Assembly (NCBI GenBank): GCA_002359655.1
Contig: DENL01000024.1
Span: 6,067 to 70,066 of the forward strand
DNA: 64,000 nt
Direction of reading: 5' to 3'
Source of the DNA: Rickettsiales bacterium UBA2645
GTDB taxonomy: Bacteria > Pseudomonadota > Alphaproteobacteria > Rickettsiales > UBA1997
In this document: piece by piece, positions 27,001 through 33,000 of the stretch
Layout of the letters: the number at the start of each line of letters is the position of its first letter
Position numbering within the stretch: the first letter of the stretch is position 1
Program-made: the position numbers

Positions 27001-30000
27001 TGTTTGACAACAACTGAAACTCTTTATGGCGGAACGATTACTTGGCCTACTGCGTGGTACAATCAAGTTGTTACCGCAACCTCTCCAACCTGTTCGAGCC
27101 TGGGATATAGTGCTGGTCCAGTTAAGCCAACTAAAAGATGTGGTGCTTTTGGAGTTTGGGATGTGGTGATAAATCCTTGCCTTCAATAGCTTAAGCAGCT
27201 CTTACTCTTCTGTTTTCATTATTTTCGCGACGATCATCTCTTTTATCATTATTCCTTTTTCTATTGTCATCTTTTCCTCTCACTCTTGGTCTTCTGGAAA
27301 AAACTCTACGTTCAAAAGTTGTAATAATTATTACAAAAGCCGTTACTGCAGCATTGATTGAAAATAGCTTCAAAGCCAGTTCTTTCTCTCCAGAGTTGAT
27401 CAAATTATAAATCAAATAAAGTAGGGCTATGTTGTAAGATAGTCCGCAAGCTTTGCCGATTCTGCTGCTAATATTGTGTGATTTAAGATATCTATCTTGC
27501 CAGTTATGACGATGTCTTTGCTCTTTTTCTGCCATATCTATCAACTGAGCTACTGATCCAGGTAAAGCATCTTCAAATTTTTCTAAAATTTCTGATGAAG
27601 GAATAATATCTTTTATAGTTTCTGGTTTACGCGAGTTTTTATAATCGTTTCTTCTGTTTCTGTTATTTTGCATTTTATTTTTTTGAATTTTGTTTTGCTT
27701 TTTCAATGTCATTGCCAATGTCAAGCCAGTCTTTGTTTAGTGCGTTTATAGGATGAGCAAATGGATAGCTACTAAGTTTTGTGCTGGTAAATGGAATTAC
27801 GCAAATAAAGCCAGCAAAAAACTTACGAGCATACCTTACTAAAAAACGAATTTGATTGAATGACATATGAATTGTAATTAGTGGAAATGGGTTTTTGAAA
27901 GTAATGATTGATATGGTGTGGAGCTGCTTTCTAAGTTTTGCCAATTAAAAGCAAAGAGATTTTATTTTCGTGGATCAAGCTTTACAGAGTCTGTTTGTTT
28001 TTGGCGGAATTTAACTAGCTTTTGAGATAGCTTTTTATCAGATAAGGCCAAGATTGAAATTGCCAAAAGTGCAGAATTTTTCGCGCCGGCTTCGCCAATT
28101 GCTAGACAGCCAACTGGAACTCCAGCTGGCATTTGAGCAATCGATAAAAGAGAATCTAAACCTTTTAAAGTTTTGCTTTCAACTGGAACGCCAAGAACCG
28201 GCAAATCTGTCATCGCAGCCACCATCCCCGGAAGGTGTGCGGCTCCACCAGCTCCAGCAATAACTATTTTAACTCCTTTTGCTTTTGCTGATTCACAAAA
28301 TTCATAAAGTCTTTTTGTTGTGCGATGTGCTGAAACAACTTTAGCTTCATAAGCAACATTGAATTCATCCAAAATTTTGCAAGCATGTTGCATAGTCACA
28401 AAATCTGATTTGCTGCCCATGATTATTGAAATTAAGGGAACATTCATAAAAATTTAAAATAGTTATGTAGATTTTTTACGTACAGTCAGTACTAGAAATT
28501 ACTTGGCTAGGACAGCTATTATCATATAACCAATTGGCATTTCCGCTACCAGCTATGCCCTGAGAAGTTCCGCAGCCACAACTTTCTATTGTAGAAAGTT
28601 GACCATCTTTACAAGTTACCTGAATAATTCCTGAAGTTTTATTATCATGATTTTGATATTGGCATGCTTTCTTAGAAGAGCCATGCGACAAGGTGCCAAG
28701 AGAAAATTCAATTTTGTTATTACTAGGACATTTGCCCTTTAATCCATAACAATCATTACGATTATTTTTAGTTGCCAAGCAATAACCATCGCCGCTGTAT
28801 ATTTTAGAAGAATCATTGCAGCTTCTACATGCTAAACAATCATTACTAACACTCCAAGTACCAACTCCGTTAGAGTTTATACAGGTCATTGTTGGTGAAG
28901 CTGAAATTCTATCGGTAACATTTACTCCACAAGTACTATCCGATCCACCAGATCCAAAAGCATGACCATAACCACTTTTACAATTCAGTGTTGATGGAGA
29001 AGATCCCACATTTACGGTTGTCGTAGGCCCACTGTAATACGATCCTGAGCCATAATTTGCTCCACTAGTAAGCGAGCAAGTTATTTGGGAGCAAGCTGTT
29101 CCGCTGCTAAGAGCGTAGTAGTATTGGTCAATATTACTATTGCTTGACATTTTTTGACATTTATAAACTGGCATTGAATTAGAGCCATAATTGGAGCTTG
29201 AGCAAGAAGAAACTTTTATAGTTTTGTCTGCTGCAATAAATGAAGATAATATCGTCGAGGTTGTTGGATTTGCACCCAAGGTAGTACCGATTCTAGAATT
29301 ATTAACTGTACCAGCATTAGTAGCACATTGAATAACTGGATCACTCCACTTATAATTTGTATTACAATATCTGGTGACAATAAATTTACCATTTGTTCGG
29401 CCAGATGCAGAGTAGTCAGTAGCAGTTTGAGTAGCCTTATCATCTGAACCAACAACATTGCCACTAGTGTTATATGCGATGGTTTGAATATCGGTTGTTC
29501 CGGCAGAAATTGAATTCCATCTTATAGCTACTTTTCCATACTGGGAAGTTGAAAATGAGCTCTGACCAATACCTTCTCTGGTGTCTGTATCATATCCTGG
29601 GCATTTATTAACACAGCTTGATGAAGTATTAGTCCATACATTTGCAGTACCTCCTGCAACAGTAACAGACTGGCATGATCTGGTTGGAGCAGACTCAGCT
29701 GCTTTTGAAATACTAGGAGTCGGTGATATTGTATTGCCACTACTATCTTTTAATGCTGAGTAAGGATATGGGCTATATCCACTAATACACGTTCCAGTTG
29801 CTACAACCGATCCTCCAACATTTACGTTAGTAACAGCCGTCCAAGTTGCATTTCCATCATTTGAACCCGGATTGGTAATGGCATTACACGATGTTACGCA
29901 AGGGTTACGAATCTCACTCCAAGTTCCATCTGACAGACAATCTGCTTCTGGCTGAGAACCACCTAAAGCTTGGAAGAAACCAAGTTTAGTATTACAATAT

Positions 30001-33000
30001 CCTTTTCTAGTTGATCCGACTGTAACTTGACTTCCAGCTTTTCTTGAAGCAGGAGTGGTATGAGTTTCAGCAACTCCATTTTTAAGCACAGGTGCACCGG
30101 GATAGTTACCATTAAGGTAAACTTTAACACCAAAAGTTGCTCCTTTGGAACTTGACCACTTCGCCCAATCTGAATTACTAGATGGGCTGTAAGGAGGATT
30201 AATTGCAGGGCAAGTTTTTCTGATACAAGAACCTGTAACTGAACTCCAAGAACCAAGCTGATTACATTTTCTGGTTGGCAATGTTGACGCTGAGAAGCCT
30301 GCGATACAAACTGCTGCTGGTGAATTAGTTTCTGAAAAATCTGAAGTACTAGTTTTTGTAAATTGTGACCAGACAGCGTAACCATTAGAAGCTCCTTTGC
30401 TACCAAGAGTGACGTCATTATAGGTTATACCATAAGTGTTACCATTGGCAGCACTGGTTTCGTTTGTAGAATCAGAAGTTTCTCCACCGTATAAGTAATT
30501 AGGATCGGTATAATTTCCTGACGAATCTGAATCTATAGTTTCTCTACCAGTTGTAATAGCTGGGCAGGAATATCGTACACAGGAATTTGCAGAGATTAGA
30601 GTTCCGCTCCACTTACCTTTTGTTGTACTAGATGAATCATCAACACAATTCATCTTAGGAAAAATCAGAGATCCATTAGAGGATGCTGATTTCCAAAATC
30701 CATTGCATGTACCAGCAACATTATTCATTCCAACAATTGCGGAAGGATATTCACCATGTCCTCCTGTCAAGGAAGTTGCGACTATTGAATTATTCCGATC
30801 TCGGTGAGTAGTTTTTACAATTCCTCCATAATCTGTATAGGCAGTTCCATTTAAAGAAGACGCATTATTACTATCTGCACCATATTTTATGGCTGAGCAG
30901 ATTTTTGGAGTTGGTATATCAATGCAAAGTCCAGCTTCATGATAAGTTTGAGTACGAGATATATTGGAATAGCCAGTAAAAGTTGTTGCTGAATCAAAGG
31001 TTAAACAATTACAGCCGATGGCAGCATTACCGTTGCCATTACAAGATGCGGGAGAGTTTGCATCCAACTTACATTTCCCTTTAGAGCCATTGGTTGTTAT
31101 AGCATTATAAACTTGCTTGAGCTTGGTATCAAAGCCAGAAGTTATGCATAGTTCATTGAACCAACCGTAAGCATTGGGATCCGAATAATCAGAATTTATT
31201 TGATCAATTATGGAAGACTCAGACGAGCTAATACCTTTTTTAGCATTACAGTTTATGGCAAGAGATTGGCATTCAGATCTAGCGCCGTTATTATTTGAGT
31301 TTAAACCGTTATTCTGAATATCGATTTCATTTTCCATACATTCTTTCCAGAGTTTGCTGCACTCTTCGCGCTTAGCGCAAACTTTATACTTTTCGAGGTT
31401 GTTATCCCCAGAGCCAGAGCAGGTTTGAGAATAAGGATCTAAATTTGTTATTGTTAGCACATTAGAGTTACTGCAACTTGTATTGTAGCAATACTTTAAG
31501 TTAATACTCGGATCGCCATAAGTCCCTTTTGCGCTTAAAACGTTTGCGTTGGCGGTGGTTCCAGAAATAGATAAAAATCTGACTCCGGTGCTTTGAGCCG
31601 ATATAGTTCCTCTATTATCTATTTCTGGAAGCGTTCTATTAACACAACCTATTTTAATATCACTAAATCCGTTATTGCTGGAGATACGTTGATATAAACA
31701 AAGTTTTGGCTGATTGCTATTTGAATCTACTTCTTTTTTTATCAAGACACCAACTGAATAAGTTAGGCCATTAAGCACAGTAGTGAGAGCGGTTGCATCA
31801 TAAGCGTAGCTGAGTGGATCTTTGTTGACTTCATATCCACTATAACCAGGACCCATGCTGAGAGTTTTGGTAGTCGTACCAAACTGTACTACGATTTCAG
31901 GATATAAAAAGTCAGTTGTACCTAGTGTAGAAGCCCCGCTATCTTGTGCTGTGGTACCACCTCTTTTATCATTAGCACTGCGTATAAATAATGGGGGAGA
32001 AAATAATTTAAGAGAATTATTCGCATTTGCTAAATTATAGAGATCTGGTGGAGATGAGTTTAGAGGTACCTTAACACATTCTTGGGCTGCAATAAATTTT
32101 CCATTTTTATCGTAAAAGCCACTTACTGAATCTTTTATGGTATTTCCTTCGGTATAATTAATTTTTAGAATTGTACGCCATCTGTCAGCAAGTGTTTTAT
32201 CGTCATTACTATTTTTTCCTCCATCGCAATTTCCAGTAGTTGAGTTATAAGAACCAGAGATGCAAGTTACACCATCGTTTAACTTACGATTTTCATCAAA
32301 AAACATATTGTTGTAGGCAACTTGACCTTTTGAATCTAAAAAGGCGCAAATTTGATGACCATATTGCACAGCTCTAACTCTAAGAAAATTATCGATTACC
32401 GCAGCACAATCTTTGGCGTCATTATTATTCAGAAACATATTATTATTGAGAGAACATTTTTTAGAATCGGAATATTTTACAGTAAGATCTTTGCAAACTT
32501 CATATCCGCACATCTGACCTTTACATAAGCCAAAAGCACAGGAAATAGCGCATTCTCTGCTGCCACAAGTTTCTGAATCTGACATTGTTAAATCATCAGT
32601 CCTTAGAGCATTTTTAAACCTTAGACAAACATTGATTGTTGAAGTTGTATCTCCATCTTCGTCAAATTCTGTATTTACATATCCATTATAGAAGGCAGTT
32701 TTACTACTAACTGGCTTAAAAATATTTCCCTTATTGCCACATAAATAAATATAACCAGCTCCTCTCCAGCCATTGCGAGCTGTATTACACATTTTTGGAG
32801 ATCTTGTCCTATCATTTGGACCCCACTGCATGTGAAAATAGTGCAAACTAACGTTTATAATTGGAATGACGGGAGTAACTCCCCATTTATGATCATCAGA
32901 GCTATTATCGCTCTGATTTTTTAAATCATTCTGACCATAGCACATACCAGTTATTCTGTAACCTTGGCTAGGATCATCATTTTTGTAAGCTTTATTTAAA

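Follow-up and report, generated by a model that had tools for sequence, protein, structure and literature searches.

Sushi/CCP modules, which serve extracellular recognition, are considered an innovation of animals (and animal viruses). What, then, are the Sushi-like repeats in a giant cysteine-rich protein of Rickettsiales bacterium UBA2645, and how did they come to be there? The gene lies on the minus strand of a 64,000-nucleotide stretch of contig DENL01000024.1 (assembly GCA_002359655.1, positions 6,067 to 70,066), which was analysed at its full length and is referred to as the window. A first-pass annotation, made from the sequence alone, had proposed that tandem CCP modules occupy the C-terminal third of the protein, that a pilin-like protein shares them, and that they reflect either host mimicry or an independently evolved disulfide-stabilised repeat. 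Our results favor another answer. We consider it probable that the repeats are an ancient array of the Sushi/CCP/SCR (short consensus repeat) superfamily, carried by a Sec-targeted, disulfide-rich giant protein, and we propose that this array is an extracellular stalk for binding or spacing.

Layout and conservation of the module array

Amino acid numbering follows the 1,959-codon open reading frame (ORF) that begins with a TTG at 34355 and is translated without interruption (28476..34355, minus strand); the first-pass annotation used the same numbering. The evidence largely establishes that the C-terminal third of the protein, aa 1153-1846, is a fixed tandem of seven modules, A to G (Table 1). 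All eight sequence strings quoted in the first-pass annotation were present, at aa 1347-1840, and the region that it delimited maps to aa 1214-1842. The tandem array was real, but the extent of aa 1215-1842 given for it was too short. On sequence grounds the start is best placed at C1153, ahead of the earlier start near aa 1215, where the window copy reads CSAI and the family consensus is CPAI, and the array runs to aa 1846.

The core of the array consists of four cysteines per module with the patterns C2-x-x-G-[FYW] and C3-x3-G-x-W, followed by a 4-residue linker to a CPAI start. These linkers agree with the earlier description of a CP.I start of the next module. Clean repetition is limited to the C2-to-C4 half. 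The C1-C2, C2-C3 and C3-C4 spacings are 64, 20 and 22 in module A, 86, 14 and 13 in module B, 72, 19 and 13 in module C, and 33, 38 and 20 in module D. Insertions lie between C1 and C2 in modules A-C and between C2 and C3 in module D, whose first half is canonical. Module E is a divergent Sushi-like module. Module F is the most divergent of the seven and can be assigned to the Sushi type only tentatively.

A chance pattern as the source of the module motifs was rejected by shuffling aa 1145-1846 2000 times. Four copies of the junction motif C-x(3,4)-C[PNS][AG][IY] are present in this region against an expectation of 0.01, a count reached in none of the shuffles. Similarly, C-x(1,4)-G[FYW] is present six times where 0.96 would be expected, and again no shuffle (0 of 2000) reached this count. 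The C..W..C motif is weaker, with four occurrences against 1.1 expected (69 of 2000 shuffles).

Conservation was examined in an alignment of 68 full-length orthologues, all of them unnamed, with 28-60% identity. The cysteines of modules A-F (C1217-C1755) are 99-100% conserved, the exceptions being C1264 (97%) and C1364 (96%), and several cysteines of module G are less conserved at 53-66% (C1760, 53%; C1809, C1840 and C1843, ~65%). Invariant columns of the family include W1221, W1479, W1574, W1670, G1353, G1459, F1461 and the CPAI starts. Across 40-49 species, modules A-D have exactly four cysteines in nearly all cases, module E has three, module F three or four, and module G seven. Insert lengths, which were measured for modules A-D, vary strongly between species around a core that is invariant throughout; module B ranges from 88 to 156 aa, module C from 73 to 129 aa and module D from 95 to 196 aa, and some inserts carry extra cysteine pairs. 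One-to-one orthologues of every module occur in all species, from which it follows that the array is old and is not being homogenised.

The modules are also related to one another. Comparison with hhalign gave a probability of 96.8% for modules B and D (E 3e-10, 56 columns), 95.6% for B and C, 94% for C and G, 93% for A and C, and 85% for A and G. Values for modules E and F were weak (C-E, 57%; A-F, 73%; B-F, 63%; pilin-like protein-E, 77%). Hidden Markov models (HMMs) of single modules cross-matched as well, with the B-C and D-B pairs recovered in 46-48 species.

As the first-pass annotation had suggested, the module recurs in a pilin-like protein, the gene for which lies 1.3 kb from the giant gene. 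The N-terminus of this protein has a cleavage/methylation motif followed by a hydrophobic helix (KKAFSLIELSIVIVIVSILITGAL), and its C-terminal 64 aa matched modules B and C by hhalign with probabilities of 93.5% and 94.4%. This link had to be established with profiles; when the giant protein was compared by BLASTP with every ORF of the window, the two were joined only at E 0.76. The pilin-like family has at least 209 homologues, whose source names are prepilin-type or type II secretion proteins, and the four-cysteine C-terminal pattern is found in 113 of 120 members. In 14 related loci the pilin-like gene is near the giant gene. One 23.5-kb contig of a relative encodes three pilin-like paralogues with a Sushi-like C-terminus (P0081, P0084 and P0085), whereas the window encodes one. 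Type IV pilins and type II secretion pseudopilins resemble this 333-aa neighbor in having an N-terminal methylation motif and a cysteine-containing C-terminus. The neighbor, however, ends in a complete four-cysteine Sushi-like domain rather than in the usual single disulfide loop.

Relationship to Sushi domains

An AlphaFold2 model of aa 1145-1590, made with a 28-sequence alignment, had a mean pLDDT of 84.5 and a pTM of 0.71. When it was compared with the PDB by Foldseek, 38 of the 41 top matches were CCP or Sushi proteins, the best being factor H in its complex with C3b (5o35_C, E 3.5e-4, probability 0.99). Other CCP matches were beta2-glycoprotein I, CD55, CD46, CR1, Crry, selectin SCRs, C1s, PAPP-A and Eph ectodomains; the remaining three were C5b-complex chains and a paramyxovirus neuraminidase. 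Among predicted viral structures the top six matches of this model were gammaherpesvirus complement control proteins, after which scores dropped to noise. The model of aa 1585-1959 (overall pLDDT ~80) exceeded a pLDDT of 90 up to aa 1845 and fell below 50 in two stretches of the tail; module E was beta-rich, and the two best Foldseek matches were factor H CCP arrays (E 6.9e-4 and 0.011). Both models thus match CCP arrays. This agreement holds at the level of the array, though the modules here are 87-118 aa long with a C1-C2 spacing of 33-86 aa; a canonical CCP has ~60 residues and ~25-32 residues from C1 to C2. The 64-aa C-terminal domain of the pilin-like protein has the canonical size, as does the first half of module D.

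Natural variation bears on the disulfide topology. In two orthologues, P0008 and P0010, C1264 (C1) and C1364 (C3) of module B are both replaced and C2 and C4 are kept, probably through a single evolutionary event. Joint loss of C1 and C3 would be the outcome that C1-C3 pairing predicts.

The best structural matches to both models belong to the complement-activation regulators (RCA), i.e. factor H, CD55, CD46, CR1, beta2-glycoprotein I and their herpesvirus and poxvirus copies. The likeness extends to the four cysteines, the Gly-aromatic pair after C2, the G-x-W between C3 and C4, the 4-residue linker to a 'CP..' start and the beads-on-a-string arrangement. In contrast, RCA modules have ~60 aa, modules E and F of the giant protein do not have the full cysteine set, and we found no significant direct sequence match; moreover, the giant protein is the product of a bacterial core gene and not a host-derived regulator.

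We then considered the sequence evidence, for which the Pfam gathering cut-offs are 20.7 bits for Sushi (PF00084) and 27 bits for Ephrin_CRD. A Pfam and NCBIfam scan of the whole giant protein gave only sub-threshold matches to these two families. Module B matched Ephrin_CRD at 17 bits, and its match to the Sushi model covered profile positions 27-56 only, the second half of the model. Orthologues scored higher. Among 28 orthologous segments, 15 matched Ephrin_CRD (best E 6.7e-8), six matched Sushi and four matched HRM. Three full-length orthologues pass the Sushi cut-off, in modules B and G: module B of P0012 at 25.7 bits and module G of P0040 and P0063 at 25.4 and 20.8 bits. Module G of P0029 also passes Ephrin_CRD (30.9 bits), and module C of P0063 lies just under that cut-off at 24.9 bits. 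The Eph-receptor Sushi-like domain (PF25599) and the class B G protein-coupled receptor hormone receptor domain (HRM, PF02793) are single ligand-binding modules of the Sushi fold. Orthologue segments match both families and Eph ectodomains are among the Foldseek matches, but in metazoan receptors these are single domains, whereas the bacterial modules form a tandem array.

When 1.84 billion representative proteins were searched with a profile built from modules A-D, 211 of them matched at E ≤ 1e-3, orthologues included. One match was a protein of 1,766 aa in which Pfam recognises 29 Sushi repeats; the profile matched it over 24 stretches (E 1.6e-16). Others were short-repeat arrays with Pfam scores for HRM, Sushi and Ephrin_CRD, such as P0261 (E 1e-62). 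The predicted fold, the orthologues that pass Pfam cut-offs and these whole-library matches to Sushi proteins support the Sushi/CCP identity proposed in the first-pass annotation.

The closest non-orthologous relatives of the modules are 54-57 aa 'PTRxC..GxW' repeats in the ectodomains of eukaryotic receptor kinases, and they give the strongest sequence matches outside the family. P0279 and P0282 continue after the repeats with fn3 domains and a transmembrane helix and have a kinase at the C-terminus. Split genes for Mito_carr, Hus1 and ribosomal L14e lie on the P0288 contig, and a Blastocystis hypothetical protein, the only relative with a name, is homologous to the repeat proteins. The receptor kinases (L056 and L058; P0261, P0274, P0279, P0282 and P0288) have up to ~28 tandem Sushi/HRM-like units and a kinase with the HRDIKxxN motif; their contigs have a GC content of 56-66%, and the family is apparently undescribed.

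An HMM built from 27 units of P0261 (the protist-repeat HMM) recognised module B at 26.6 bits, module C at 14.7 bits, the first half of module D, and all 68 orthologues. It also reported 113 of 120 members of the pilin-like family at a permissive E ≤ 10, with 15 bits for the window copy and up to 31 bits elsewhere. The same HMM found the canonical 29-Sushi protein at E 1e-84, and P0261 as a query found SVEP1-like Sushi proteins at E 2e-65. In contrast, an HMM of canonical Sushi repeats gave module B only 3.8 bits. Judged by similarity searches, a significant chain leads from the bacterial modules through protist repeats to textbook Sushi arrays.

Motifs point to the same relatives. The subtype motifs N[AG]xW and P[TS][RK]xC..GxW occur 14, 8 and 8 times in P0261, P0279 and P0274, respectively, compared with no occurrence in three canonical Sushi arrays. 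Bacterial counterparts are PTRKCNQLGSW in module B, NDGNATW in module D and PTKRCGAFGVW in the pilin-like protein; the family consensus of module C is PTRxCDxLGNW, and the window copy reads PEADCLSDGTW. Bacterial modules and protist units further share CPA[IL], GTCxxG[YFW] and C-x4-C linkers. These features largely establish membership of the modules in a 'PTRxC..GxW / N[AG]xW' Sushi subtype common to protist receptor kinases, and an ancient transfer between eukaryotes and bacteria, in either direction, is likely. The two differ in arrangement. Protist units are compact, uniform and highly iterated (up to ~28) and precede fn3 domains, a transmembrane segment and a kinase, whereas the bacterial modules have diverged individually, carry long inserts and follow a 1,150-aa unrelated cysteine-rich region.

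Inheritance and genomic setting of the giant gene

The giant gene was found in 55 loci of species-representative genomes (L001-L055). Without exception these are bins of uncultured Alphaproteobacteria or 'Rickettsiales', for the most part from lake and aquifer samples. Many of these bins carry implausible species labels, including 'Rickettsia typhi', 'uncultured Rhizobium sp.' and 'Lentimonas sp.', and seem to belong to a single aquatic alphaproteobacterial clade, with errors of labelling or binning. Papers on basal Rickettsiales yielded no named family to which this clade could be assigned. The order rpe-murD-giant gene-purE is kept in more than 40 loci. A 4,284-aa orthologue (L057, 5821-18675) occupies the same slot between murD and purE on a contig with 32% GC that also carries LptD, SecDF and ankyrin-repeat genes. 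Distant orthologues among P0259-P0326 are 3,600-5,186 aa long; the size of the family members varies more than 2-fold and the position is kept. Another orthologue, P0047, is encoded in a complete genome of 1.09 Mb. It is largely established that the giant gene is a single-copy core gene of an aquatic Rickettsiales-like clade, inherited vertically between murD and purE, and that the array was assembled before this clade of Alphaproteobacteria radiated. The GC content of the gene is 0.37-0.39, compared with a window mean of ~0.35. Recent horizontal transfer of the giant gene was rejected, given this unremarkable composition and the fixed synteny.

The true start of the protein is probably the ATG at 34301 (M19), because the database copy (P0001) has 1,941 aa and M19 hardly varies across the relatives. 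The protein has 103 cysteines, almost all conserved, and is rich in Ser, Thr, Asn and Gly. Its N-terminus is basic and continues into a hydrophobic segment of ~17 residues with no obvious cleavage site, which would be a Sec signal or a membrane anchor. The disulfide-rich composition and this export signal together point to an extracytoplasmic protein. In aa 1-1150, where no Pfam or NCBIfam family was matched, almost invariant cysteines are dense; 'NC....(P)LC' pairs repeat at aa 98-300, and further cysteine clusters lie at aa 597-621 and aa 979-1153. The start of the giant gene overlaps the 3′ end of murD by 20 nt, and its stop lies 28 nt ahead of the purE start. An internal 151-aa ORF (29963..30418, minus strand) was rejected as a gene, being an alternative frame inside the strongly conserved giant gene.

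Elsewhere in the window, no other vir genes were found among the ORFs checked near the VirB10 gene. The adjoining MBOAT and AlgX-like genes resemble polysaccharide or peptidoglycan O-acetylation systems. The window also encodes purine-synthesis genes.

Table 1. Features of the giant cysteine-rich protein, its modules and neighboring genes. Positions are those of the window.
Feature	Position	Strand	Remarks
MBOAT acyltransferase and AlgX-like SGNH protein, adjoining	13980-16501	+	
VirB10-type type IV secretion protein	19865-21181	+	178 bits; lone among housekeeping genes
Prepilin-type (pseudopilin-like) protein, 333 aa	26188..27189	+	Pfam N_methyl PF07963, 25 bits vs 21.2 cut-off
Four-Cys C-terminal module of pilin-like protein, 64 aa, canonical Sushi size	26995..27186	+	C-x31-CSSLGY-x11-CGAFGVW-x7-C
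DUF2335 membrane-domain protein, 177 aa, very basic	27191-27724	-	Between purE and pilin-like gene; position kept in 15 related loci
purE	27962..28447	-	Same strand as giant gene
Giant cysteine-rich protein gene	28476..34301	-	Likely ATG start at M19, 1,941 aa
C-terminal tail, variable, Cys-containing, not Sushi-like	28479..28817 (aa 1847-1959)	-	Low conservation, many gaps, no hhalign link to any module
Module G	28818..29078 (aa 1760-1846)	-	C1760, C1792 (CKSGY), C1825 (C...GTW), C1840/C1846, extra Cys
Module F (assignment tentative)	29079..29315 (aa 1681-1759)	-	C1718, C1733, C1755
Module E	29316..29603 (aa 1585-1680)	-	C1585 (CPGY), C1664 (C...KW), C1677; three conserved Cys, no C2
Module D	29604..29888 (aa 1490-1584)	-	C1490 (CNAI), NDGNATW, C1523 (CISGY), C1561, C1581
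Module C	29889..30212 (aa 1382-1489)	-	C1382 (CPAI), C1454 (C..LGFF), C1473 (C..DGTW), C1486
Module B	30213..30566 (aa 1264-1381)	-	C1264 (CPAI), C1350 (CIAGF), C1364 (CNQLGSW), C1377
Module A	30567..30899 (aa 1153-1263)	-	C1153 (CSAI), C1217 (C.GFW), C1237, C1259; all four Cys 100% conserved
murD	34282..35661	-	Same strand as giant gene

Origin and proposed role of the array

The known families with the Sushi fold all act in extracellular binding or spacing. A binding or spacing role is inferred for the giant protein from this precedent, together with the export signal, the invariant core surrounded by hypervariable loops, the fusion to a pilin-like protein and the kinship with receptor ectodomains. 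Its most likely role is that of a rigid stalk or binding array that touches another cell surface, probably a eukaryotic one. After export and oxidation of a DsbA type, the modules would form a stiff, protease-resistant, beads-on-a-string stalk, and their variable loops would provide the binding surfaces. Such a stalk may present or space the giant protein for contact with another cell surface, probably that of a eukaryotic host or prey. The module at the prepilin-type C-terminus could be displayed additionally on a pilus or pseudopilus fibre.

Several observations weigh against an ancient Sushi-type stalk. The window copy falls below the Sushi cut-off of 20.7 bits, scoring 9.2 bits when the whole protein is used and 16.6 bits when module B is taken by itself, so that the PF00084 search proposed in the first-pass annotation, taken by itself, speaks against Sushi identity. 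No significant match among PDB sequences was obtained with a profile of the four-module region or with profiles of modules B, C and D. The best of the non-significant matches were complement C2b, through its three CCPs (E 0.14), and the EphA2 cysteine-rich domain (E 1.5), and direct kinship to solved CCP proteins can therefore not be claimed from such searches. E-values for proteins with many repeats may be inflated by the periodic cysteine pattern. The Foldseek E-values are modest (~1e-4) and global TM-scores are low (0.2-0.37), the latter as expected from the comparison of flexible multi-domain chains. Modules E and F do not have the full cysteine set, and the window neighbors rpe, murD, purE, DUF2335, fabD, galU, MlaD, purF, purM-like, MBOAT/AlgX and VirB10 give no functional hint for the giant protein. 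We nevertheless regard the sub-threshold PF00084 result as overturned, because orthologues pass Pfam cut-offs, the profile search reached Sushi proteins, and the predicted structures match CCP arrays.

The sub-threshold score and the non-significant PDB searches would also suit convergence, in which a bacterial beta-rich disulfide repeat reached the pattern C..G[FY]..C..G.W..C independently and is not homologous to Sushi domains, as would the restriction of strong CCP resemblance to the second module half and the non-canonical module length and C1-C2 spacing. However, orthologues pass Pfam cut-offs in modules B and G and come near in module C, the whole-library search produced significant matches to true Sushi arrays, and the chain of similarity extends to protist repeats, SVEP1-like and 29-Sushi proteins. 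First-half motifs (CPAI and N-G-x-A-x-W) match too, the linker length is the same, and the predicted fold agrees with CCP. We consider convergence very unlikely, and the independently evolved repeat of the first-pass annotation is contradicted by detectable sequence homology. The other explanation offered there, host mimicry, would require that the array was taken recently from a metazoan RCA gene, as in poxviruses and herpesviruses, and shields the bacterium from complement. The predicted fold does match factor H, CD55, CD46 and viral complement control proteins best, but no RCA chain among PDB sequences gave a significant match, and module B is recognised far better by the protist-repeat HMM than by the canonical-Sushi HMM. 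Every module is orthologous across species down to 28% identity in a gene that always lies between murD and purE, the genomes are freshwater and aquifer metagenome bins, and the long inserts are unlike those CCPs that bind C3b or C4b. The aquatic loci, the fixed synteny and a GC content near the window mean, which is not compositionally foreign, argue against both recent acquisition and complement mimicry. Mimicry of metazoan complement regulators by a core syntenic gene with protist-repeat kin is extremely improbable.

An envelope function must also be weighed. The giant protein could be an inner-membrane-anchored, disulfide-cross-linked periplasmic scaffold, like the cysteine-rich envelope proteins of chlamydiae, with the modules acting as spacers that make no contact with a host. 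This would fit the N-terminal hydrophobic segment without an obvious cleavage site, the tight linkage to murD with overlapping coding ends and probable co-transcription, the single-copy core status of the gene and the finding of no dedicated secretion genes adjoining it. We think a scaffold unlikely because this module also forms the end of a prepilin-type protein, for which display on a fibre is expected, loop lengths differ greatly between species, as under diversifying pressure on surfaces, and the nearest relatives of the modules are ectodomains of receptors that bind ligands; no point among these settles the matter. The preferred reading thus remains an ancient Sushi-superfamily stalk. 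A more far-reaching version of its history, which we regard as doubtful, is that an early Rickettsiales-like ancestor acquired a ligand-binding repeat of the Sushi type from the receptor kinases of a protist that was its host or prey and built this repeat into a giant surface protein and a pilus tip. The bacterium would then present host receptor modules to host ligands or surfaces, in an ancient mimicry or adhesion apparatus that predated intracellular life in the order.

Nothing relevant came from searching the literature for Sushi domains in bacteria or for the metagenome bin named in the loci. The fold itself is known; new here, as none of them was found described in the literature searched, are a seven-module array with long inserts encoded by a bacterial core gene, its pilin-fused sibling and the kinship with protist receptor kinases. 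The analysis also singles out a large unannotated protein family, with more than 200 clusters at 50% identity that are all labelled 'hypothetical'. If the proposed stalk is correct, the range of the Sushi fold would extend beyond animals and animal viruses, and an old exchange of a recognition module between eukaryotes and bacteria would be documented. It would also offer a specific candidate for the means by which early relatives of Rickettsia, possibly extracellular ones, make contact with eukaryotic cells.

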